A DNA stretch of 64,000 nt from an uncultured bacterium (GCA_965368975.1 CBDUPA010000014.1:130195-194194); one strand, 5' to 3'; positions 5,932 to 43,222 are shown, counted from the stretch's first letter. A program made the numbers and translations. Notes: generated by a model not told the origin, from the sequence alone.

Positions 5932-8900
5932 GCACCCAGCGCACCGCCAACCCCGACGCCTCGTAGATCCGCTTGCCGTCGACCCACAAGGAAGCATCGG
6001 CAACGGTCAGGGTACCGTCTTCAGCTACTTCAGTGACCTCGACCTCGACGACCACCTTGCGGTTGTGCGGCAGCACTTGGCCTCGATACTTCCAGCTGAA
6101 CTCGCGGCCGATGGCAGGCGCCTGGAAGCGACGTTCCTCGAGCCCCTTCCCGCCTGTGCCAGCTACGACCGCGAAGCGCAGCAGCTGGAGCAGGGCTTCG
6201 AGGCCAAGCGAGCCGGGCTGGACCGGATCCTGGTAGAAGTGAGCGGCGAAGAACCAGGCGGTCGGGTCGACGTCGAACTCGGCGCGCGCGCGCCCCAGGC
6301 CGGCGTCACCGCCTTGCGGCCACCAGCCGGTGACGCGATCGAGCAAGCGCAGACGACCACGGGCGAGACCGGCACCACCACCTTCGTCGTTCACGAACCA
6401 CCCTTCCGGCTCGCGGGTCAGGTCGAGCGACGCAAAGGCCGGATCTCCGCCATCGGCGTCCGCGGGCAGTTCGAGGCGTGCGCGTTGGGCGTCGGTGGTC
6501 GGCAGGCCGGCCTGGTCGGCGAGCGCGGCGGCGGGGAAGAAGCCGAAGGCCGTCTGCATGGTGAACACCGGCTCTTTGCCGTTGGCAGTATCCCGCTCCA
6601 TGCGCACGTCGAAACGCTCGATGATCGAGCTGCCCGAACGCGCGACGCCGACCAGTTCCGTGCGTGTCGAGACGGTTCCTTGTGTCGAGCGAGGGTCCTC
6701 ACCGGCCCGCAACTCGGCATGAACGGTGCCGGTGCCGTCGAGGTTGCGGAAGTGCAGATTCTCGCTGGAATGCAGTGTGCTCCCCACATAGGAAGCCAGC
6801 CAGCCGCACGGCTGCAGGCCGGTCTCCATGAGCAGCGCGAAGGGCAGGGCACCCGTGCCGCCTTCGGGGACGAAGTCGTCCTCGGGAAACAGTCTCTCGG
6901 CGCGCGCATGCGGTAGATCGTAGTCGAGGGTCGCAGCATAGCGCTGACGCAGCCCGGCGCTGGGGTCGAGCGTGCCTTGCTCGCCGTCGATCTCGACCAC
7001 GCGCGAGAGGCAGTGGTACGGCGGCCCGGGCAGGCGCGGCGTGCGGCGGTCGGCAGCGTCGAAACGGATGAAGGGCGCGCCGAAGGCGGCGGAGGGGGCT
7101 CCCCAGGCGGAAGCGAGGAGGGCGGCGCCGTCGAAGGTGTGGGCATCGCTCTGGCCGGGCCGCACCGTGACCGGTGGCCGCGCGGTCGGCGGCAGCGCCA
7201 CCGCGGTATGCAGGCGTTCCGGAGCGCTCGAGAGTGGCTGGTCGGGCACCAGGCGCAGGCCGACGCGGCGGCCGTGGAAGGCTTTCAGGCCGTCGACGGT
7301 GCACAGCAGGTCGGCCCATAGCGTAGGGCCACACTGCGGATTCGACGGGTCGACGATGTCGACCTGGTGCACGAACACCTCGTAGACCAGCTGCTTCGAC
7401 GTCGGGATCACCTGCCCACGGCAGCGCAGCGGGTAGGCGACTTCCGGCACCGGCTCGAAGCGCCAGCCGTCACGGTCGAGGGTGTAACCGAGGGCGGCGA
7501 GCACCAACGCCATGGTGTTGAGACAACCTTCGAACATGACGGTGCCGGGCATGCACGGATCGTTCTTGAAGTGACCGTCGAAGATCCAGCTGTCGCCGTC
7601 GCCGATGTCCAGCTCGGCGCGCAGATAGCCGCGTCCCCAGGGGCCGCCTTGGATGTCGAGATCGGTCACGCGGTCGAGCAGCAGCAATGGCGGTGCCGGG
7701 ATCGAGGGCGTGCGCACATGCGTCGCGGCGCGGGCGTACGCCGAGCCGAGGGCGGCGGCACCCCTGCCTCGGGCGAAGTCGAGGAGCTGGTCTTTGCTCA
7801 GCTGGCGTGGAATCAACGCGGCTTCCACGCACGGAACGGGTGGCGTGTAGGTCTCCGGCGACGGCGTGTCCGTGGACGCATCCCACAGCAGCCCGCCCGA
7901 GTCGGCAAGTTCCTGGTCGGTGAAGAAACCAGCCTGGCCACCGCGCACGGACAGCCGACGCGCGCCATCAATGCGGCAATCGTAGTGGAAGAAGAAAAGG
8001 CGCACATCGCCTTGCTTGGCGTGGCCGTCGATGTGGATGTCGTAGGCCAGCGTCTCCCCGACCGCCGGGGGTCGGCCATGGTAGGTCAGGTCGCAGCCGA
8101 GCAAGCGGTAGACGCGCTCGCCCTGGTTCAGGAAATCGACGCCGAGCCAGGAGATCAGCGTCAGGTCGGCCTGCCCGGCCTCGATCATCAAGCCAGCGGG
8201 CATGCGACCGTCGTGTAGGTACCAGGAGTCCTCGCGCACGTCGGTCTCGGTCCAGATGGTGCCGGTGCCCATGGAACCAGCTTCGGCGTCGATACCGGTG
8301 ATGCGGTCGACGAGCAGGAAGGGCGGCTCGGGCAGACGTACCTGGCGCGGGTAGGCATCCTGGCGGCGGAAGAGGTCGCCGAAGACGGTCGAGATGCGGC
8401 CAGAGGCGAGCTCGAGCAATTGGGCGCGGTCGAAGGCCGGACCGCGGGGCGGTGGGACGGCAGGATCGACTGGGCCAATGGACGGTGGTGTCGTTTGGGG
8501 GTCGGATGCGGCTACGCCGCTAGGCACCCACGGGGGGATCTCCTTACCCGCATGGGGATCCGAACTCTGTGCAGGGGCACCCCACTGTGAGTGCCCTGGG
8601 CGGATGGGCGGTTCCGCATGCGGCATCCTCTCCGCCTCCGCCCCCAACATGCCTGCCAACATCCCTTGCTGCACCGCCAAGAACCGCTCGTGCAGCTGGC
8701 TCTGTTGCGCCAAGAACTCCTGCTGTGCGCGGGCGATGCTGGCTTGCAGATGCTGCAGTTCGTCGAGGTGCGGGGAGGTCGGATTTGGCTGCGGTCGATA
8801 TTCGGCTGGCACCTCCTGAGGCAGCACCTCTCGAGGCAACACCTTCTGAGGCAGAGCGGCTCCTCGATACTCGGCTGGCACCTCTCCGAGGACGGGTGGT

Positions 8901-11900
8901 AGAACGGGTGCGGGGGCCATGATCTGGACGTTGGCCTCGGCCGCGGACACGGACGACATGGGGGCCTCCTGCTCCTGGTTCGACAAGCTAGCCACGGGCG
9001 GCCAGTGGGCGGGGAAGGTGAGACGATGCTGGGGCAAGGCGGCGGCGGTCGGCAGGGTCAAGGCGCTCAGGGCCAAGGCGCTCAGGGTCAAGGCACTGTA
9101 GTCGCCCGCGACGCCGGCGGCCAGGAGTTGCGCGGCGGCCTCGACGGTGGCACGCAGGCCGCGGGCGCCATCACTGGTGGATGCGCGGGCGGACAAACGC
9201 CGACGGTCGAGCGGCACGGCGAGGAAGGACTCCTCGGGCACGCCGTCGGCGAGCAGGGTCTTGCGAATCCAGCTGCTGCACAGGCCGCGCGGGCCGTGCT
9301 CCAGGAAGACGCGCACACCGTCTGCATAGGCTCGGCGCACGACGCGGCGGAAGTCGAGGGTGTCGGCGGCCTGGGCCAGGATCGCCTGGGCGGCGCTTTC
9401 GCGATCGGGACGGTAGGGGGCGGCCTTGGCTCCCGAGTACAGGCGCACCGCTGCGCCGTCCCGCTCCAGCGCCTCGGGCCGCGTCGGCAGGCGGTGCAAG
9501 TCGAGCCAGGCATCGGCGACGTCGCGCACTTGCGGGCAGTGGACGACCATGCGGTAGTCGAGCGGCACGCCGGTGACGTCCAGGGCGTCGAGGACGCGGC
9601 GGCAAGCGGCTTGATCGCCACCGAGAACAGCATCCTCGGGACTGCTGATCAGCGTCAGGTGGACCAGGCCACCCTGCGCCACTTCGGTCTCGACGGCGGC
9701 CCGCACGGCGTCGACGGGCGCGCTCAGCTGGTAGTTCATCCAGTGGATGGTCTGCTCACCGTCCTTGACGGGCGTCAGCACGCGGCACTCGCCGCACAGG
9801 TCGCGGCTCAGCAGCTCGCCGGCTTCGCTGGCCAGCACCAGCTGGTCGACGTCCGGCCAGACGCCCGTCGCGACCAGGGAGTTGGTCTCACCCGAGGAGT
9901 AGCCGAGTACGGCGTCGGGCTGCAGGCCGAGCAGGCCACGGCTCAGTTCGGTGTGCAGCTGACACAGGAATGAGGTACCCCAGAGCAGCTGCAAGGGATC
10001 GGGGGCTTCCTCCGTCTGCCCGTAGACCCAGGCTGCCGCGCGGGGCAGTTCGCGGCTGCGAGCTTCGAGGCGGTCGAGCAAGGATGGGAACGTCGCGAGC
10101 AACCCGGCGCCCATCTCGGGGTAGGCCGCGCCGCCACCGGTGTAGACGAAGGCGAGTTGGCCAGCGTCAGAATCGTCTTGCCCAACCAGGGAACCCTGCC
10201 CGACCAGGGGTCGCTCGCGGAAGGCCATACCGGCTGGCAAACGACCGGTACCTTGTTGCAACCAGGAGGCCGCCTGGCTGCGCCGCGTGGCAAGGTCGTC
10301 TTCACTGTCGGCGACCAGCACCAGGCGGGCAGGGTCATTCGTCGTCACGGCGGCTCGCTGATCGCGCTGCAGCCGCTGGAGGACTTCGCCGCGATCGGTA
10401 CCGCTGTAGAGCACCAGACCTGGACGCACTCCGGACGGTGTCGCTCCGAACGGTGTTGCTCCGAACGGTGTTGCTCCGAACGGTGGCGCCCCGTCCGCGG
10501 CCTGGAGCTGGACGGTCCCGGAGGCACCCGTCAGGGCTTCGACACGCACCTCGGCGATTCGGCTCCGCGCGCCGGACGGCAGCAGCCATGGACGCCCAAC
10601 CTTCGAATGCCCGGCCGCACCGCCGAAACACCTTCGACGGTGCAGCGCCTGGACGGCCGCCGCGACCTGCAACAGACCGGAAGCGGCATGGGCGTGTCCA
10701 AAGCGAGCGGTTACGGCGTCTGTATCGGAGTCGGTACCGAGTGTGAACCGCGCTATATCGTGCTCTATCGCAGGCTCCCCCACCTCGTGGCTTCCGAGCA
10801 CGGCCAGCACCGGCTCACCCAGCCGGCGGGCATCGGCCAGGCGCCGCAACACCAGCACGACGGCGGCATCTCCTCCTCGACGCGGACTTCCAGCCGGCAA
10901 CAGAGCCTCGAGCACCGCTTGTTGCACCGGCTCGCCGGCCACCACGTCGACGGCACCGACGACCGCGGCGTCCAGCTCACCGTGACGCAGCGCCTGCGCC
11001 GCCACGCGTAGCGCTTCGATACCGGAGAGTTCTTCCGCCGCCACCACCGCGCTGCCGCCGCGCAGGTCGAACTGCTGGTTGAGCCGGTTGGCGGGGATGT
11101 TCGGCATCGTGCCGACGACACCGGCGGCATGCAGCTCGGGCACGGCCGCCAAGCATCCTGGATGCTCGTGACCGTGACGCCAGCGCAGGCCATAGCGCGC
11201 GATCTCGGCATCCACCTGCAGACCGACCAGCACGCCCGTCCTGTCGGGTGGCAACTCCAGACCGCCCCCGCTCGCCTCGGCATTGCCATCCAGCAACCGC
11301 CGGGCCGCCTGCAACAAGAGCAGCTGCTGCGGTAGCGCTTGTTCGAGGTCGCGCGGCGGGAAGCGCAGACCGGCGAGCTCGAGCTCGACCTGCTGTCGAG
11401 CCGGCAGTCTGTCTGGTGGGGGGGCTTCGAGCGCAGCCACGAAGTCGTCGACGCCGCGTCCCTCTCCCGCCAGCACCTCGAGCGCGACGATGGCGACGGG
11501 CTCCGATGTGGCAGTGACGGGTACCTGGTCCGGCGGCCGCAATGGCGCCTTCAGACGGGGCGGTGCCTTCGGCCGGTACTCCTCCACCAGCAAGTGAGCA
11601 TTGTTGCCACCGAAGCCGAAGGCGCTGAGCGCCGCCAGGCGGGGCGCGTCCTGCTCGGGCCAGGGCTCGGGCTCGCTGAGCAGACGGAAGGGCGTACCGT
11701 CAAAAGCCGGGGTCGGATCGTCAGCGGCGTGCAAGCTGGGCGGCCGCGTGCCGTGCTCGAGGGCACCGAGCACCTTGAGCAGGCCGGCCATGCCGGCGAC
11801 GGTGATCAGGTGACCGAGGTTGGACTTGAGCGAGCCGAGAGCAATGGGTTCGACCGCGGAACCAGCGCCATCGCGCGTGTAGACGGCGGCCAGCGACTGC

Positions 11901-27802: not shown

Positions 27803-28579
27803 ATGGCTGAAGCCGTTCTGATGGAGCGCGAAGGTCGCGTCGCCATTCTCACCGTCAACCGCCCGGACAAGCTCAACGCGCTCAACGAAGCCGTGCGCAC
27901 CGAGATGCTCGCGCACCTGGAAGCCATCGAGACCGACGACAGCATCGGCGCGGTGGTGATCACCGGTGCTGGCGAGAAGGCGTTCATCGCCGGGGCCGAC
28001 ATCGGCGAGTTCGCCGGCCGCAGCCCGTTCGACCAGCGCCACGCCATGCGCTCGCCGCGCGTGTTCGACGTCATGTCCGAGTTCCCGAAACCGGTGATCG
28101 CGATGATCAACGGCTTCTGCCTGGGCGGCGGCTGTGAGCTGGCGTCGAGCTGCGACATGCGCATCGCGTCCGACAACGCCAAGTTCGGTCAGCCGGAGAT
28201 CAAGCTCGGCATCATTCCCGGTGGCGGTGGCACGCAGCGCCTGTCGCGCCTGATCGGGCTCGGTCACACCATGCGCTTGGTGCTCACCGGCGACTTCATC
28301 GGCGCCGCCGAGGCCAAGGACATCGGCTTGGTCGAGCAGGTGGTGCCGGCGGCAGAGCTGCGCGAGACGGCGGTCGGGCTGGCGCAGAAGATCGCGTCCT
28401 TCAGTCCGCTGACCGTCAAGGTGGGCAAGGAAGCCGTGCGCGCCGGCGAGCGTCTGAGTATCGAGGACGGCATCCGCTACGAGCGCGACCTGTTCTGCCT
28501 GTGCTTCTCGTCCGAAGACAAGGAGGAGGGCGTCGACGCCTTCCTCAACAAGCGCAAGGCGGAGTGGAAGGGCCGCTGA
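27803..28579 (+). CDS. Enoyl-CoA hydratase (crotonase)
   Basis: AFIAGADI, GFCLGGGCEL and FGQPEIKLGIIPGGGGTQRL; AGGAG RBS. Confidence 0.92.
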   Translation: MAEAVLMEREGRVAILTVNRPDKLNALNEAVRTEMLAHLEAIETDDSIGAVVITGAGEKAFIAGADIGEFAGRSPFDQRHAMRSPRVFDVMSEFPKPVIAMINGFCLGGGCELASSCDMRIASDNAKFGQPEIKLGIIPGGGGTQRLSRLIGLGHTMRLVLTGDFIGAAEAKDIGLVEQVVPAAELRETAVGLAQKIASFSPLTVKVGKEAVRAGERLSIEDGIRYERDLFCLCFSSEDKEEGVDAFLNKRKAEWKGR

Positions 28580-37536: not shown

Positions 37537-38196
37537 TTACGCTATGACTAGAATTCTATTGCTCTGAGACCACGAACCAAAGAAATGATAATGTAATAAT
37601 CTTAACCTTCTTATTTTCTTTCTGACTGGACGGAAAAAACCTATCGCGTCGACGGTCGATAATGTCTCCTTGAGACGTTGGCGTGCCTGAAACAGCTGAG
37701 AGCGGACGGTTTGCAGCGACACCGACATCTCGCCGGCGATCTCTTCGTACTTGAGGTCGCGCAGACGCAGAAGACAGCACTCCTGCATTCGCGGTGACAG
37801 CTGACGGACCGCGCCCTGGACGTGCTCGACGGTCTCTCTACGCAGCAAGCGCGTCTCGGGATCGGGCTCAGTCTGGACGTCGGCGGCGATGGGGAGATCG
37901 CCATCGGAGTCTTCGTTGCCCAGGTCGAGCGGCACTTCCTGTGCGCCACGTTTGAGGGTGTTGCGGTCGCGCAGATGGTTGAACCAACGGTTGCGGGCGA
38001 TGCGGTACAACCATGTTTCGAGGCTCGAGTCTTCACGAAAGGTCGAGGTCGTCTTGAGGATACGCAGGAAAATATCCTGCGTCAGATCTTCGCTTTCTTC
38101 CGGTGACGCACCCTTGCGTCGGAAGAAGCGGGTCAGGGGGCGGTGGAAGCGAAGAAAGAGGTCCTCGGGAAATAGCGATGCAGCCTGCTGGGACAT
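37537..38196 (-). CDS. ECF RNA polymerase sigma factor
   Basis: Region 2 'EDLTQDIFLRI...LETWLYRIARN' and region 4 'LKYEEIA..M.VS..TVRSQLFQAR'; GGAGGAG RBS before the ATG at 38196. The C-terminal tail runs into AT-rich DNA. Confidence 0.88.
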   Translation of the reverse strand: MSQQAASLFPEDLFLRFHRPLTRFFRRKGASPEESEDLTQDIFLRILKTTSTFREDSSLETWLYRIARNRWFNHLRDRNTLKRGAQEVPLDLGNEDSDGDLPIAADVQTEPDPETRLLRRETVEHVQGAVRQLSPRMQECCLLRLRDLKYEEIAGEMSVSLQTVRSQLFQARQRLKETLSTVDAIGFFRPVRKKIRRLRLLHYHFFGSWSQSNRILVIA

Positions 38197-38372
38197 GAAA
38201 GAAATCTCCTCCGGAATGTGAACAGCGGAACGCCTCGGCGATGAAATTGGACTCACGGTTGCAAGACAGACACGAAACGCAGCGGGATGTTCAGCGCTCC
38301 TTCACTGGCTTCGACAGCAGAACCTGACATAGTGTGAACTAAGCAGAATACACCTACTTCATTGACGGAACT

Positions 38373-41300
38373 ATGGCCTGGAATCGACTCGAACTCAAGC
38401 AGCAACTGGACAAGGCCTACGACGATCTGACCGCGCTCGAACAGAGCCTGGAAGTCACTGAGGACGCACTCGAAGGCGCTCGGCTCAGCAACCGGATCGA
38501 GCGACAGCGCCAGTGCATCCGGCAGCTCCACGACACGCTGGACACGCCGCCGGAGCCGTTGACGGCACTCGAGGTGGCACAGGAGGCTGAGGAGAGCCTG
38601 GAGCTGAGCGAGGGTTGGCAGGTCCTGCAACCCCCGACGCGGCTCGATGCCCGCCAAGGCGAGGACTCCTGTGGAGACGTCGAGTTCCTGGTGCAGGGAC
38701 GCAGTAGCGCTCGACGTGTCAGCCTGCTGTGCACGGCGCCCGGAACCCAGCCGCAGGACGACGTCCGGACAGACGCCCTGCAACGGCTGAAGACTGTGCG
38801 GCACGAGCACGCCGCGGACGAAGCCTGGTGGATCACGGACCGTCCAGTACCGGCGGCGGTGCGCCGGGCGATCGAGCACGAAGAAGGTCTACGCTGCCTG
38901 CGCCTGGAAGAGATCTTCTTGCACCTGGTGCCCCTGCACCGCTATTTCGAGTGGCTGGAACAACGCTATCGCGAGCTGCGCATCGAGGACTACTTCGTGC
39001 ACCAGGGCTGCACCCTGCGCGTGGGTACCGCCGGCGCCAGTTCGGCGCAAACGCAGCACGGCTCGGTGACGCGCTTCCTGGAGGCCTGGCTCGCCAGCCC
39101 GACGCGCAACCACCTCTCGGTGCTCGGCGACTTCGGCACCGGCAAGAGCTGGCTCTGCTGGTACCTCGCCTACCATCAGCTCCAGGCTTGGCGGGCGGCA
39201 CCGACACGCGAGCGCATTCCAATCCTGATCCACCTGCGCGACGCCCAACGCTCATCGTCGGTGGAGGACTTGTTCGAGCTCTTCTGCCGCACGCACGGCC
39301 TCGACGCACCGTTCCGCCTGTTCCAGGCGCGCAACCGCTGGGGCCGCTTCCTGGTCCTGCTCGATGGCTTCGACGAGATGCAGCAGCGAGTCGAGCCGGA
39401 GGTCTTCGAGCGCAACTTCGACCGCCTGGCGGTGCTGGCCGTGCCACGCAGCAAGGTGGTGCTGACCTGCCGCACGGGACACTTCCGCTCGGCCGGCCAC
39501 GAGCAGGAGGTGATGGCGCGCGAGATCGACCCCCACCTGCACCTGCGCAACCGGCCCCACTTCGAGATCCTCTACCTCAAGGAGTTCAACCCCGAGCAGG
39601 TAGCAGAGGCCCTGGAGCGTCGCTTGGGCAAGGATTGGGAGGTCGACTGGCAACGCATGAAAGACGTCTACAACCTGCCCGACCTGGTCAAGCGGCCGGT
39701 GATGCTGGAGATGGCGGCCGCGTCGCTGCCCGCCTTGCGCGACCGGGATCACGTCAGTGCCACCGATCTCTACGACCACTACACGCGGCGCTGGATCGAA
39801 CAGGTGGGTGCAGGCCGCAGCCTGCTGACGCCGGAGGACCGCGCCGCGTTCTCGCGGGCCCTGGCCTGGAAGCTGTTCCAGCAAGGTGACCAGGCGGAGC
39901 CGAAGATCCACTGGAATCACCTTCTCGGAGCGGTCCACCGTCTGGGCGGCAACCTCGCGCGGCAGGACTCGGACCCGGTCGCCCGCGACGTGCAGACACA
40001 GTCGTACCTGGTACGCGACGCCCACGGCAACTACTCCTTCGCCCACCGCTCGATCGGCGAGTACTTCGTCGCCCGCGAGCTCCAACGCTACCTGCAGCAG
40101 GGCGACCACCAGCCGTTCGTCGACCAGGACTTCCCCGACGCCGTCGACTTCTTCCTCGGCGATCTGGAGCTCGACGTGGACCGCTTGTGGAGCTGGTTGC
40201 AGTTACCGCAGGCGCGCGATACGGAGAGCTTCCTGGCGGGCAACGTCCTGACTCTGCTGGCGTTGCACGACCCGAGGAGGCTGCGCGGCAAGGACTTCTC
40301 CGGGCTGGTGGTGCGACGCGCCAAGCTCGATCAGGCCGACCTCCAGGACTGCCGCTTCATCGGTGCAGCACTGCGGTCGCTGGATATCAGCAACGCCGAC
40401 CTGCGCCGCGCCGACTTCACCGATGCCCACTTCTCGAACCTGATGCTCGGCGTGCGCTCGGCGGCCAAAGGGGTCGCCGCTAGCGCCGACGGCCGCTGGA
40501 TCGCCAGCGGCACCGGGGAGAATCAGATCCGCGTCTTCGACGCCACCAGCCTGCAGAGGGTGCACGACCTGGGCAGCGCCGATGACTTCCAGGACTCGAT
40601 CACCTGCGTCGCACTGAGCCGCGACGGGCGCTGGGTCGCCAGCGGCGGTTTCGACCCGACCGTGCGCGTCTGGGACCTCGACGCACCGGAGATCCCCGCC
40701 CGCAACTTCAACGGCCATACCTCGACGGTCTACGACGTGGCGCTGGATCCCGCCGGCCGCTACGTGGCCAGCTGCGGCCACGACCGCCGGGTCCTGCTGT
40801 GGGACCTGGAGACGCGCGAAGAACTCGGCCACCTGACCGGCCACGAAGCCACGGTCTACTCGGTCGAGTTCCATCCACGCGGCGACCGGCTGGCGACTGC
40901 CAGCTTCGACAAGACGCTGATCGTGTGGCAGCTGGAGACGATCGTCGACCCGGAAACCGGGCGTCGGTCGCTGATCGTCCACGACCGCGGCTACCAACAA
41001 CTGCAGGGCCACGACGGCCTGGTCAACAGTGTGCGCTTCAGCCCCGACGGCCGCTTCCTGGCCAGCGCCAGCAACGACACCACCTTGCGCCTTTGGGACC
41101 TGGAGCAACTCGACCTGGGCAAGGCGCTCGCGGTCTTCGAGGGGCACACCGACATCGCCTGGTGCGCCGCCTTCAGCCCGGACGGCAACTACCTGGCCAG
41201 CTGCGGCACCGATCGCACCGTGCGCGTCTGGGACGTGCGACAACGGCGGCAGCTGGTGTGCCTGGAAGGACACCAGAATACGATCTGGGAGGTCACCTTC

Positions 41301-41537
41301 GACGCTACCGGCGAACGGGTGATCAGCGGCAGCCACGACAGCACAGTCCGGGTCTGGAACTGGCGGGACGCGTGCTGCATCCAAGTTCTGAAGCTGCCAG
41401 AAGACGCCAACCAGAAGATCCGCTGTGACGGTATGATCCTGCCACCCCAGGAGGGCTCCGGTCTGAGCCTGCTGCAATACCGCTTCCTGCTGCGCAAAGG
41501 CGCCGTGAACCCGAGAGGAAACGATGACGCCAACTGA
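38373..41537 (+). CDS. NLR-like STAND protein: EAD-like helical hairpin, degenerate REase-like domain, NACHT, pentapeptide repeats, 7x WD40
   Basis: Walker A GDFGTGKS; Walker B LVLLDGFDE; LTCR; YSFAHRSIGEYFVA; ADLQD/ADLRR/ADFTD pentapeptides; seven WD40 repeats. Confidence 0.9.
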   Translation: MAWNRLELKQQLDKAYDDLTALEQSLEVTEDALEGARLSNRIERQRQCIRQLHDTLDTPPEPLTALEVAQEAEESLELSEGWQVLQPPTRLDARQGEDSCGDVEFLVQGRSSARRVSLLCTAPGTQPQDDVRTDALQRLKTVRHEHAADEAWWITDRPVPAAVRRAIEHEEGLRCLRLEEIFLHLVPLHRYFEWLEQRYRELRIEDYFVHQGCTLRVGTAGASSAQTQHGSVTRFLEAWLASPTRNHLSVLGDFGTGKSWLCWYLAYHQLQAWRAAPTRERIPILIHLRDAQRSSSVEDLFELFCRTHGLDAPFRLFQARNRWGRFLVLLDGFDEMQQRVEPEVFERNFDRLAVLAVPRSKVVLTCRTGHFRSAGHEQEVMAREIDPHLHLRNRPHFEILYLKEFNPEQVAEALERRLGKDWEVDWQRMKDVYNLPDLVKRPVMLEMAAASLPALRDRDHVSATDLYDHYTRRWIEQVGAGRSLLTPEDRAAFSRALAWKLFQQGDQAEPKIHWNHLLGAVHRLGGNLARQDSDPVARDVQTQSYLVRDAHGNYSFAHRSIGEYFVARELQRYLQQGDHQPFVDQDFPDAVDFFLGDLELDVDRLWSWLQLPQARDTESFLAGNVLTLLALHDPRRLRGKDFSGLVVRRAKLDQADLQDCRFIGAALRSLDISNADLRRADFTDAHFSNLMLGVRSAAKGVAASADGRWIASGTGENQIRVFDATSLQRVHDLGSADDFQDSITCVALSRDGRWVASGGFDPTVRVWDLDAPEIPARNFNGHTSTVYDVALDPAGRYVASCGHDRRVLLWDLETREELGHLTGHEATVYSVEFHPRGDRLATASFDKTLIVWQLETIVDPETGRRSLIVHDRGYQQLQGHDGLVNSVRFSPDGRFLASASNDTTLRLWDLEQLDLGKALAVFEGHTDIAWCAAFSPDGNYLASCGTDRTVRVWDVRQRRQLVCLEGHQNTIWEVTFDATGERVISGSHDSTVRVWNWRDACCIQVLKLPEDANQKIRCDGMILPPQEGSGLSLLQYRFLLRKGAVNPRGNDDAN

Positions 41538-42456
41538 CACCGGCTCAGCGCCGGATGCCACGCCACACCCGGACGCCTCCCTTCCGGAGAAGGACGATCG
41601 TGGCACCGACTTCCCCCGGGTCGCCGTGCTCGGCCTCGGCCTGATGGGAGGATCGTTCGTCGGCGCGCTCGAACGTCGCTTCCCCGAGACCCAGAGCGTC
41701 GGCTTCGACACCGCCCCCGAGACAGCAGCTCAGGCACTCGACCTGGGTCTGGTCGACCGCCTGGCTTCGAGCGCGGAAGAGGCCGTCGCCGAAGCCGACC
41801 TGGTCGTGCTGGCGATGCATGTCCGCGGGATCCTCGAAACCATCCCGCGCGTCGCCACGATGATGAAAGACGACGCCGTGCTGCTCGATCTGGGCAGCAC
41901 CAAGACCGCGATCGTGCGTGCTCTCGATGCGCTGCCCGAGCGGCTGCAAGCGATCGGCGGCCACCCGATGTGTGGCAAGCGGACCTCGGGCGTCGACGGC
42001 GCCAGTCCCGACATGTATCGCGGCCGCGTCTTCGTGCTGACGCCATCGCAGCGGACGCGTCCAGAGACCTTGGAGCGCTTGCTCACCTTGCTGCGTGCGC
42101 TGGAGATGCGGCCGGTCGTGCTCGAGCCCGAGCACCACGATCAAGTGGTCGCCTACATCAGCCACCTACCTCACTTCCTGCCAATTCCCCTTCTCGAAGC
42201 GACGGCGGCCGCGGGCGATGCCAAGACCTGGGAACTCGCCGCGGGCGGCTTCCGTGCCGCTGCCGGTGGTCTAGACAGCAATCCCGCCATGTGGGAAGAC
42301 ATCTTGCTCACCAACCGCGCCGCCCTGGCGCAGGCGCTGCGGGCACTGCGAGCCCAGGCAGACCGCGGCGTCGAGCTACTGGAAGCCGGCAGCGACGACG
42401 ACTTGCTGCGCTGGTTTCGCGACGCACAGGAACTCTACCAACAGCGTCTGGGGTGA
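41524..42456 (+). CDS. tyrA: Prephenate/arogenate dehydrogenase (TyrA family), no ACT domain
   Basis: Rossmann GLGLMGGS, DLGSTK, GGHPMCG and HD..VAYISHLPH; overlaps the NACHT gene by 14 nt. Confidence 0.88.
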   Translation: MTPTDTGSAPDATPHPDASLPEKDDRGTDFPRVAVLGLGLMGGSFVGALERRFPETQSVGFDTAPETAAQALDLGLVDRLASSAEEAVAEADLVVLAMHVRGILETIPRVATMMKDDAVLLDLGSTKTAIVRALDALPERLQAIGGHPMCGKRTSGVDGASPDMYRGRVFVLTPSQRTRPETLERLLTLLRALEMRPVVLEPEHHDQVVAYISHLPHFLPIPLLEATAAAGDAKTWELAAGGFRAAAGGLDSNPAMWEDILLTNRAALAQALRALRAQADRGVELLEAGSDDDLLRWFRDAQELYQQRLG

Positions 42457-42499
42457 ACGCTCGGATTTCTGCTCCAGCTCCCTCCCCTACACCCACACC

Positions 42500-43222
42500 A
42501 TGCGCCAGCAACAGCTCGAAAGCCAGATCCGCAGCCTCTCCAAGCTGATCGACCGCCTGGAACGGCAACGAATCGTCACGGGCGAGCCGCTCGAGGCCGT
42601 CAGGCTGGACGACTTGATCACCGACAAGAAAGACTTGAAGCAACAGCGCGTCCACGAGTACCGAGCGCTACACCCGCGGCGAATACCGGATGACTTGCTC
42701 GACGACCTACTGCCTGCCGATGCACCGCCCCCGGAGATCTTCCTGAGCTACCGGCGGACCGACAGCCGCGACGCCACCGAGCAGCTCGCCACCCTGCTGG
42801 CGCGTCAGTTCGGAGCGGATCACGTCTTCTACGATCTGCATCGCGGCGCCATCGCACCCGGTGCCGAGTGGCAGCAGGTGCTCGACCAACGTTTGCGCCA
42901 GGCCAACATCCTGCTGGTCATCATCGGCCCCGGCTGGCTGGACGCTCGTGACGAGGGCGGACGGCGGCTCGACCAACCCGACGATCCGGTACGACACGAG
43001 ATCGAACTCGCCCTGACCCTCGGCACACAGAAGCTGCCGGTGCTGGTCGCGGGTACGGCCAGCCCAAAGCGCCAGCAGGTGCCGCCGTCGATCCAAGCCT
43101 TGTTCGACATCCAGGCCGTGCGCCTGGACGACGCAACCTTCGAGGTCGACGTCCACCAAGAGTTGCTGCCCTGGGTGCAGCGGGCGCGCCTGCAGGGCTG
43201 TCGCCCCCCCAAGGCAACCTAG
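42500..43222 (+). CDS. TIR-domain (TIR_2) protein with N-terminal EAD-like helical hairpin
   Basis: IFLSYRRTDS, FGADHVFYD, I.PG..W, LLVIIGPGW and DPVRHEIELAL (catalytic Glu position intact). Confidence 0.88.
   Translation: MRQQQLESQIRSLSKLIDRLERQRIVTGEPLEAVRLDDLITDKKDLKQQRVHEYRALHPRRIPDDLLDDLLPADAPPPEIFLSYRRTDSRDATEQLATLLARQFGADHVFYDLHRGAIAPGAEWQQVLDQRLRQANILLVIIGPGWLDARDEGGRRLDQPDDPVRHEIELALTLGTQKLPVLVAGTASPKRQQVPPSIQALFDIQAVRLDDATFEVDVHQELLPWVQRARLQGCRPPKAT

Follow-up and report, generated by a model that had tools for sequence, protein, structure and literature searches.

A NACHT-WD40 sensor, a hairpin-bearing TIR protein and a prephenate dehydrogenase gene as a candidate split NLR-like system

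How might a NACHT sensor that seems to carry no effector of its own produce an output, and could a TIR protein encoded close by supply it? The question is raised by a locus in a 64,000-nucleotide stretch of DNA from an uncultured bacterium (GCA_965368975.1 CBDUPA010000014.1:130195-194194; the whole stretch is called the window here, and positions are counted from its first letter). Four genes lie within positions 37537-43222: they encode an extracytoplasmic function (ECF) sigma factor, a NACHT-WD40 protein, a member of the prephenate dehydrogenase (PDH) family and a stand-alone TIR protein. The original prediction for this locus, in which the PDH gene was absent, described the NACHT and TIR proteins as a new NLR-like system linked by a shared N-terminal adaptor. 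The explanation favored here is a split NLR-like system in which a SARM1-type TIR NADase is recruited in trans, probably through N-terminal hairpins, with PDH as a conserved partner; taken as a whole, it has about an even chance of being correct. Its parts differ in strength. Coupling of the NACHT and TIR proteins as one system is likely, because in clade relatives a NACHT and a TIR of this subfamily form one protein and because each of the two proteins is an exception among its paralogues. Docking of one hairpin on the other is plausible from the predicted folds, with somewhat less than an even chance. The proposed linkage therefore survives as a probable association, and its proposed route through the hairpins as a plausible one.

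The NACHT-WD40 gene (38373-41537, + strand) encodes 1054 residues, and a model match together with intact Walker motifs places the protein among the bacterial NACHT (STAND) NTPases. The NACHT domain (aa 250-415; 39120-39617, +), identified by Pfam and a family alignment, scored 26.4 bits against a cut-off of 26.7 in the protein search and 29.8 bits in the whole-genome search. Walker A (G-x-G-K, near K258) and Walker B (D-G-F-D-E, D331-E335) are invariant across 17 family members in the alignment, in agreement with the earlier claim that both motifs are intact. Homologues are numerous (276 at E<=1e-3, down to 9e-45), the best one other than the protein itself having 38% identity. Pentapeptide repeats (aa 649-684, 30.4 bits) are followed by a WD40 propeller (about aa 699-1015, 225.9 bits in 6 stretches); this part of the protein (40317-41417, +; Pfam) is the presumed ligand sensor. 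Ahead of the NACHT domain lies a region resembling NA-iREase1 (PF22722; whole domain about aa 85-185, matched part aa 130-180, 38760-38912, +), which scored 20.6 and 24 bits, both below the cut-off of 27, and an alignment of it covers 13 family members. A Lys of the Mrr-type proteins P0057, P0063, P0066 and P0059 is replaced by Thr in the window protein, so the NACHT protein is predicted to have no enzymatic output of its own. Other family members use the slot ahead of the iREase-like domain for SIR2_2, DUF4062, TIR, Mrr, metallophosphoesterase or trypsin domains, and for NNH5 in cyanobacteria; in the window protein this slot is only about 80 residues long. Fused effectors at the same position in homologues of the core protein are one of the marks by which effector-associated domain (EAD) systems are recognized (Kaur et al., 2020), and the family has them.

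Which effector belongs in that slot is suggested by the closest relatives. The family loci surveyed were the best 80 of 486 confirmed relatives among the first 600 pattern matches, taken from genome contigs. A relative of the window TIR occurs in three of the 80 (L055-57), all from the single genus Promicromonospora, and in each the TIR is the N-terminal domain of the NACHT open reading frame (ORF) itself (TIR_2 at aa 4-106). The fused TIR of L055 is identical to the window TIR at 51 of 127 residues (40%, E 1e-23), and in all three proteins it leads directly into the iREase-like region with no hairpin between. In the survey of homologue neighborhoods that the original prediction called for, the relatives of the window TIR were thus all in fused form. 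In a careful maximum-likelihood tree of 39 hand-picked rows, the window protein, L054, P0118, L063, L135 and L055-57 split from the other 31 at 99/98. Reverse phmmer searches agree with this eight-row clade: with the L055 core and 200 proteins, the best match outside the genus was the window protein (241 bits, the next at 200), and with L056 the scores were 239 bits for P0048, 234 for the window protein and 187 for the next. Judged by sequence, clade members normally seem to bear a fused N-terminal effector directed at NAD, which is a TIR in three and a DUF4062-like domain in two (20.8 and 19.3 bits, below cut-off); the N-terminus of L054 matches no assigned effector. DUF4062 is reported as an NADase in a recent preprint (Le Mouellic, 2026).

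The TIR gene (42500-43222, +) encodes 240 residues, of which aa 80-210 (42737-43129, +) form the TIR domain (TIR_2, 41.1 bits, cut-off 28). The TIR of SARM1 is its best match both in sequence (phmmer E 1.7e-5) and in fold (Foldseek E 3.7e-8, TM 0.85 on target, from an AlphaFold2 model with an overall pLDDT of 81), and that of AbTir is a weaker fold match. Glu167 of the VRHEI motif (42998-43000) is invariant in 11 sequences and aligned with the Glu of SARM1 HKEI, which upholds the earlier statement that the catalytic Glu is kept. The two marks of a SARM1-like TIR NADase, the TIR fold and the catalytic Glu, are present by sequence and predicted fold. A relationship to Thoeris ThsB is not indicated: NCBIfam ThcB4 gave 39.5 bits against a cut-off of 220 and the PADLOC ThsB model 22.5 bits, with a match confined to the first half of the TIR, and no search was made for ThsA. 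A single full-length relative was found, the orthologue P0002 (84% identity), and among 38 TIR homologues the N-terminus is covered only in the window protein itself and in P0002, where the hairpin is retained with 78% identity across the first 60 residues. Searched for in 41 related genomes, the TIR protein found a match in six, the window's genome included; in the other five the match starts at query residue 55 or later, so that the hairpin (aa 1-57) is unmatched. Among public sequencing runs, one from a sediment metagenome contained two small contigs that match a portion of the TIR gene exactly; no relative turned up, and the contigs gave no context.

Both proteins stand apart from their paralogues. 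Twelve NACHT ORFs were read in the window's genome, and the other 11 have between 119 and about 500 residues ahead of the NACHT domain, which by eye are SIR2-like, phosphoesterase-like, Mrr-like or long and helical; the window protein alone has so short an N-terminus. The window TIR is likewise alone among 17 TIR_2 matches in carrying a helical N-terminal extension in a short protein. Recent fission of a NACHT-TIR gene in this genome was considered as a source of the window TIR and rejected, as only three other TIR ORFs of the genome match it at E<=1, with at most 15 bits. The genome is very rich in conflict-type genes generally. Its 17 TIR_2 matches are for the most part TIRs at the N-terminus of proteins 600-1000 residues long, there are 21 NACHT matches (12 over cut-off), and several of its NACHT genes are paired on contigs C9, C15 and C16.

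What fills the short slot is a predicted two-helix hairpin. The NACHT hairpin (aa 1-57; 38373-38543, +) is recognized from an AlphaFold2 model and from its position, which is that of the effector domain in homologues; its helices span residues 5-26 and 32-57. The TIR hairpin (aa 1-57; 42500-42670, +), with helices at 2-27 and 33-57 and a pLDDT of 73-83, is joined to the TIR domain by an acidic, proline-rich linker that runs to aa 78. Both N-termini are thus predicted to have the same helix-loop-helix layout with equal dimensions. The original prediction had aligned NACHT aa 8-42 with TIR aa 6-40 without gaps, and the alignment itself holds: it has 11 identities in 35 positions and a BLOSUM62 score of 36, and it is the best 35-mer pairing within the first 60 residues of both proteins. 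It does not clearly go beyond chance, given that 14 of 2000 shuffles reached the same score and that, as described below, so did other places in the genome. The Smith-Waterman score of 43 was reached by 15/815 and 8/815 composition-matched helical windows of the same genome, and reversed-sequence controls gave 29. Comparing the two segments as profiles, a check proposed with the prediction, lent it little: hhalign recovered 24 columns of the proposed register at P 0.012 and a probability of 3.5%. As a sequence signal, the similarity between the hairpins appears weak, with a local P of about 0.01 that lies within the genome background, and it is suggestive only because of its location. One published mark of EAD systems is a copy of the domain on the NTPase and another on a nearby effector (Kaur et al., 2020); position and predicted fold fit this description, and copy status would rest on that local P of about 0.01.

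If a split NLR-like system is the right explanation, the fused effector of the clade would have been replaced in the window's genome by a 57-residue hairpin, and a TIR of the same subfamily would be supplied by the second gene downstream, behind a hairpin of the same size. A ligand would bind the pentapeptide/WD40 part, and ATP-dependent oligomerisation of the NACHT domain, as expected from the family, would follow. The clustered N-terminal hairpins of the NACHT protein could then recruit and concentrate the hairpin-TIR, a step that we regard as tentative, at a little under an even chance. The TIR would finally cleave NAD+, as its SARM1-like fold and retained Glu suggest.

Between the two genes lies the PDH-family gene (tyrA-like, 310 aa; 41524-42456, +), whose product matches PDH_N at 111.2 bits and PDH_C at 71.2 bits. 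Five of the 80 family loci have a PDH homologue directly beside the NACHT gene and on the same strand, and these five are the clade members L054, L055-57 and L063; within the fetched flanks of the remaining 75 loci, some of them short, none has one (0/75). A search from the PDH side gave 80 loci, L063 again and 79 new ones; one of the new loci (L135, Citromicrobium) has a NACHT neighbor, and this NACHT sits in the same eight-row clade. With the window added, all seven clade members of known context (window, L054, L055-57, L063 and L135) are therefore PDH-linked on the same strand. They come from five distant lineages, namely the window's organism, Saprospiraceae, a gammaproteobacterial metagenome-assembled genome (MAG), Citromicrobium and Promicromonospora. 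Gene order varies among them: L135 reads prephenate dehydratase (PDT)-NACHT-PDH, L055-57 read PDH-[TIR-NACHT]-PDT, and in L054 a gene for aroG-chorismate mutase (CM) lies divergently upstream of NACHT-PDH. Genes for pheA or aroG-CM accompany NACHT-PDH in three of the five lineages. A quick PDH tree of 51 rows, in which 44 of 78 unlinked loci were included (the top ten, then alternate ones), placed all seven NACHT-linked PDHs in one group of 12 rows with support 98 and the 39 Chloroflexota-type rows outside it, and L063 and L135 are sisters in this tree as they are in the NACHT tree. On the evidence of these loci, PDH appears to accompany this NACHT clade more consistently than any other partner. 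No report of a link between NACHT and PDH, judged by the titles of matching papers, or between prephenate and STAND or TIR proteins, was found in the full-text literature, a search that did not extend to the supplementary tables of Kaur 2020/2021 and Kibby 2022.

The Rossmann GxGxxG is retained in the window PDH and the GGHPM His in 51/51 rows, and in these respects the protein resembles a functional dehydrogenase. In the GGFRDxxR motif (window PDH aa 240-250, about 42241-42273), the second Arg, which we take to be a prephenate-binding residue, is kept in 39/39 Chloroflexota-type rows and in L055-57; it is replaced by Gly in the window PDH, Ala in L135, Ser in L063 and Lys in L054, a change that may alter substrate binding. 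NCBIfam PDH equivalogs stayed under cut-off (197.6 vs 414). The gene is the sole PDH_N copy in the window's genome, in Citromicrobium and in the Saprospiraceae MAG, and one of two copies in the other three of six genomes. Prephenate dehydratase (PF00800) has no match in the window's genome, which is 99.3% complete, and no PDH_N match over cut-off was found in the four same-family genomes (0/4); the window lineage may lack the usual Phe/Tyr end pathway. The idea that this PDH is merely the housekeeping tyrA of the lineage is weakened by that absence of PDH_N in the same-family genomes and by the absence of the whole region from the syntenic site.

The NACHT, PDH and TIR genes are co-oriented, as the original prediction had it for the NACHT and TIR genes, and they are closely packed. 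The PDH start overlaps the 3′ end of the NACHT gene, including its stop, by 14 nt and has a GAGAGGA Shine-Dalgarno sequence inside the NACHT 3′ end; 43 nt separate PDH from TIR; and no terminator-like site was found on the + strand between 37300 and 43500. Because of the shared strand, the overlap with its Shine-Dalgarno sequence, the short gap and the lack of a terminator-like site, the three genes are probably one operon and form a three-gene accessory module. The region is accessory DNA. Three same-family genomes lack a stretch of 14.6 kb (window 28.6-43.2 kb) at the syntenic site, where the obg-nadD-rsfS-sigma54-activator string is followed by a homologue of window 27803-28579 (enoyl-CoA hydratase). 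The stretch holds genes for an amidohydrolase, a ParA-like ATPase, a HEAT protein and a di-haem-peroxidase-like protein and several ORFs without a Pfam match, in addition to the ECF sigma, NACHT, PDH and TIR genes; 3′ of the module, the minus strand carries the sigma-54 activator, rsfS, nadD and obg. Control of the module by the divergent ECF sigma factor, as had been suggested, is not borne out. The sigma gene (37537-38256, −; Sigma70_r2, r4_2 and ECF matches) leads a separate string of minus-strand genes, and a homologue of it within 7 kb was found at none of the 80 NACHT family loci.

A number of results weigh against a hairpin-coupled split system. At the level of the genes, PDH separates the NACHT and TIR genes, and upstream of the TIR start codon (42480-42499) there is a C-rich tract with no Shine-Dalgarno-like sequence, unlike at the PDH start, so that translation of the TIR may rely on coupling or another mechanism. 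The NACHT hairpin model comes from single-sequence AlphaFold2 and is of low confidence (pLDDT about 65 here, 43 overall). BLASTP did not recover the alignment of the NACHT and TIR N-termini, MAFFT put helix 1 in a different register, so that the register is unstable, and scores of 36 or more occur elsewhere in the genome at 21 places with the TIR 35-mer and 13 with the NACHT 35-mer (14,239,676 six-frame positions); those of the equal-scoring places that were inspected sit in unrelated proteins. In a phmmer search of 56,243 open frames of the same genome (E<=50), neither N-terminus was among the first 26 matches listed for the other. No EAD or other Pfam family was reached by either hairpin, and by their sequences both seem to be orphans, unlike the recurrent published EAD families. 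The nearest TIR domains to that of the window, P0003-P0005 (43-45% identity), are not fused to NACHT. Many family members have helical NNH5 alone at the N-terminus and no effector nearby, and therefore a NACHT protein that lacks an effector need not recruit one. The tree adds its own cautions. Within the eight-row clade the window protein is not resolved as sister to the TIR-fused members (87/90, 68/89, 54/13); an earlier 35-row tree joined window and Promicromonospora at 100/99 in a set without L054 and P0118 and before L063 and L135 were added. The window protein, L054 and L055-57 deviate in amino-acid composition, long end branches were flagged for L054 and P0118, and those of the window protein, L063 and L135 are also near 1. 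For these reasons the clade is best accepted with a measure of caution.

In a rival account, the two proteins are simply unrelated neighbors. The helical N-terminus of the NACHT-WD40 protein would serve that protein itself, for output or oligomerisation; the TIR protein would be a stand-alone coiled-coil NADase that self-associates by means of its own N-terminal helices; and the 11/35 identities would be the chance likeness of amphipathic helices. This account is rather unlikely, though several observations favor it. A coiled-coil-plus-TIR architecture exists, for example in AbTir, and helical N-termini of the NNH5 type occur often in the family with no effector in trans. The similarity of the hairpins lies within the genome background, with the low hhalign probability given above, and the genome is so rich in TIR_2 and NACHT matches (17 and 21) that chance proximity is not negligible. 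No recurrence of the hairpins across the family was found either. TIR aa 1-78, searched with HMMER against 1.84 billion representatives, matched only P0002 and two marginal sequences that are internal in long proteins; NACHT aa 1-80, in a word-based search with 293 candidates, matched only itself; no further copies turned up among the 56,243 open frames of the genome; and look-alikes of the TIR N-terminus in the ESM Atlas had a best score of 0.76, under the noise level. The window hairpin showed no similarity to the region upstream of the iREase domain in L054, P0118 and L055-57. Recurrence of the domain in the same and other genomes on varied effectors, another mark of EADs (Kaur et al., 2020), was thus not found in these searches. 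A search of 74 family loci for an N-terminal domain shared between the NACHT protein and its neighbors gave two matches, the stronger of which (L101) is to an NNH5-NACHT gene and involves no effector. In this Nostoc locus two NACHT genes (108-1817, −, and 6230-10702, +), about 4 kb apart, share NNH5 (E 1.4e-9). Against unrelated neighbors it counts that NACHTs of this clade occur fused to TIRs of this very subfamily, that the two proteins are single exceptions among their paralogues and lie one gene apart, co-oriented and with no terminator-like site between, and that their predicted hairpins have equal dimensions.

Two further explanations keep the coupling or the docking and change the means. 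In one, which we judge improbable, NACHT and TIR are coupled without homotypic docking and the hairpins only self-associate; PDH would be the bridge or regulator, either as an NAD(H)-binding protein that holds and releases the TIR or as a guarded host-like enzyme watched by the WD40 domain. It draws on the retention of PDH in 7/7 context-known clade members whichever effector they carry, on the position of the gene between NACHT and TIR and its translational coupling to NACHT, on the NAD-directed effectors of the clade (TIR, and the sub-cut-off DUF4062-like domains) and on the fact that in the window, L135 and L063 the GGFRDxxR motif has lost its conserved second Arg. Any contact of PDH with NACHT or TIR is, on the other hand, purely hypothetical, and the retained Rossmann motif and GGHPM His, the sole PDH_N copy in 3/6 genomes (which may simply be housekeeping tyrA) and the ordinary pheA/tyrA/aroG cluster neighborhood in three lineages all suit a plain metabolic enzyme. 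The other, that both N-termini are divergent members of EAD9 (PF19962), restates the earlier description of them as EAD9-like and is very improbable. NACHT aa 7-51 are colinear with model positions 10-54, and the EAD9 segments of other genomes in the phylum have a similar hairpin form, yet the score of 13.2 bits (E 0.079) is below the cut-off of 25 and ranks fourth, after the unrelated syntaxin, OEP and an HTH family, and the TIR N-terminus matched no Pfam family at E<=1. No EAD9 match in the whole of the window's genome was above cut-off; there the NACHT match (12.3 bits, E 1.06) was 4th of 5, and the same loose search was positive in 10/14 control genomes. Across 301 genomes of the phylum, EAD9 segments were above cut-off in 5/301, and several matches are generic coiled coils, internal or C-terminal, such as L043. 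One short contig of a genome from this phylum has neighboring EAD9 matches of 48.8 and 25.2 bits in open frames (L033/L044, G284:C270:355-525 and 1420-1566), which looks like a genuine EAD9 pair.

Should the split NLR-like system prove right, the locus would be useful in several ways. Adaptor-mediated recruitment of death effectors is central to animal inflammasomes; recruitment by adaptors in bacteria is widely predicted and, to our knowledge, tested only for CARD-like domains. The naturally fused pair of Promicromonospora and the split pair of the window would make a clean test bed for a helical element that replaces a covalent link. A NACHT clade with NAD-directed effectors that lies beside PDH, in some lineages between pheA and tyrA, also hints at a link between an immune sensor and a core metabolic enzyme. 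In its strongest form, which seems rather unlikely, this idea makes PDH the third integral part of a NACHT immune module that is connected with the prephenate branch of aromatic amino-acid synthesis. The module would have spread as a unit across at least five lineages, and in the window's genome its sensor and TIR would also have come apart, with a two-helix adaptor not described before holding them together; PDH would then be a guarded or decoy enzyme watched by WD40, or an NAD(H)-binding regulator of the NADase. Were PDH instead a mere passenger, the linkage would serve to keep a defence gene attached to one that is essential.

How far does the locus resemble systems already described? The nearest principle is that of the EADs, in which a small terminal domain on a core NTPase has a copy on a nearby effector; in the two papers that set it out, TIRs are among the effectors and NACHTs among the NTPases, and the coupling is predicted to be homotypic (Kaur, Burroughs, Iyer and Aravind; Kaur et al., 2020, eLife, PMC7159879; Kaur et al., 2021, eLife, PMC8195603). 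A survey of bacterial NACHT proteins includes EAD “adaptors” (Kibby et al., 2022, preprint). What EAD systems have in common with the window locus is that the NTPase and a nearby TIR each begin with a small helical domain, non-enzymatic in the NTPase, and that fused effectors fill the same position in homologues. The window hairpins differ in that they match no Pfam EAD, consist of two helices in about 57 residues, do not recur and have a similarity that is not statistically secure, and in that a PDH gene lies between NACHT and TIR. A second comparison is with the CARD-NLR systems (Wein et al., 2023, preprint, PMC10312443), of which LypABC of Caulobacter is an example in which the LypA-LypB interaction was detected by two-hybrid and is needed for function (Banks et al., 2026, PMC13236601). 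Here too an NLR-like ATPase is joined to a separately encoded effector through small N-terminal helical domains, an arrangement that in the window is proposed from predicted models. The CARD-NLR systems have a CARD-like bundle, a protease effector that acts on gasdermin or another partner, and a different STAND clade with TPR; the window has a two-helix hairpin, a predicted TIR NADase and a NACHT with WD40. Pfam finds no CARD or peptidase family in either window protein, and PADLOC gives no CARD-NLR model. Coupling through adaptors is a published principle, described for STAND NTPases with TIRs and other effectors (Kaur et al., 2020; Kaur et al., 2021; Kibby et al., 2022, preprint), and for CARD-NLR systems it is experimentally tested (Banks et al., 2026), so that the description of the locus as a new system is not supported.

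Closer likenesses are found for the single components. The Promicromonospora proteins (L055-L057) belong to the same NACHT clade and have a WD40 sensor, a TIR of the same subfamily (40%) and PDH alongside; they differ in being a single TIR-iREase-NACHT-WD40 polypeptide without a hairpin, whereas the window system is split, with a hairpin on each part. SARM1 has the catalytic Glu at the aligned position, and the beta-A motif F/I-S-Y-R-R is common to both TIRs. SARM1 is oligomerised via its own SAM domains and auto-inhibited by ARM repeats; the window TIR, unlike SARM1, has only the hairpin beside its TIR domain. The window PDH is like the TyrA family (3dzb, 3b1f, 5uyy, 3ggg) in a full-length match (E 8e-41), GxGxxG, the GGHPM His and the PDH_N + PDH_C arrangement, and it is unlike that family in having no ACT domain, a Gly at the second Arg position of GGFRDxxR, and a location in a NACHT module in a genome without prephenate dehydratase. 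Set against these known systems, what is new at this locus is the pair of orphan two-helix hairpins as adaptor candidates, the natural fused counterpart in the same clade and the conserved PDH neighbor.

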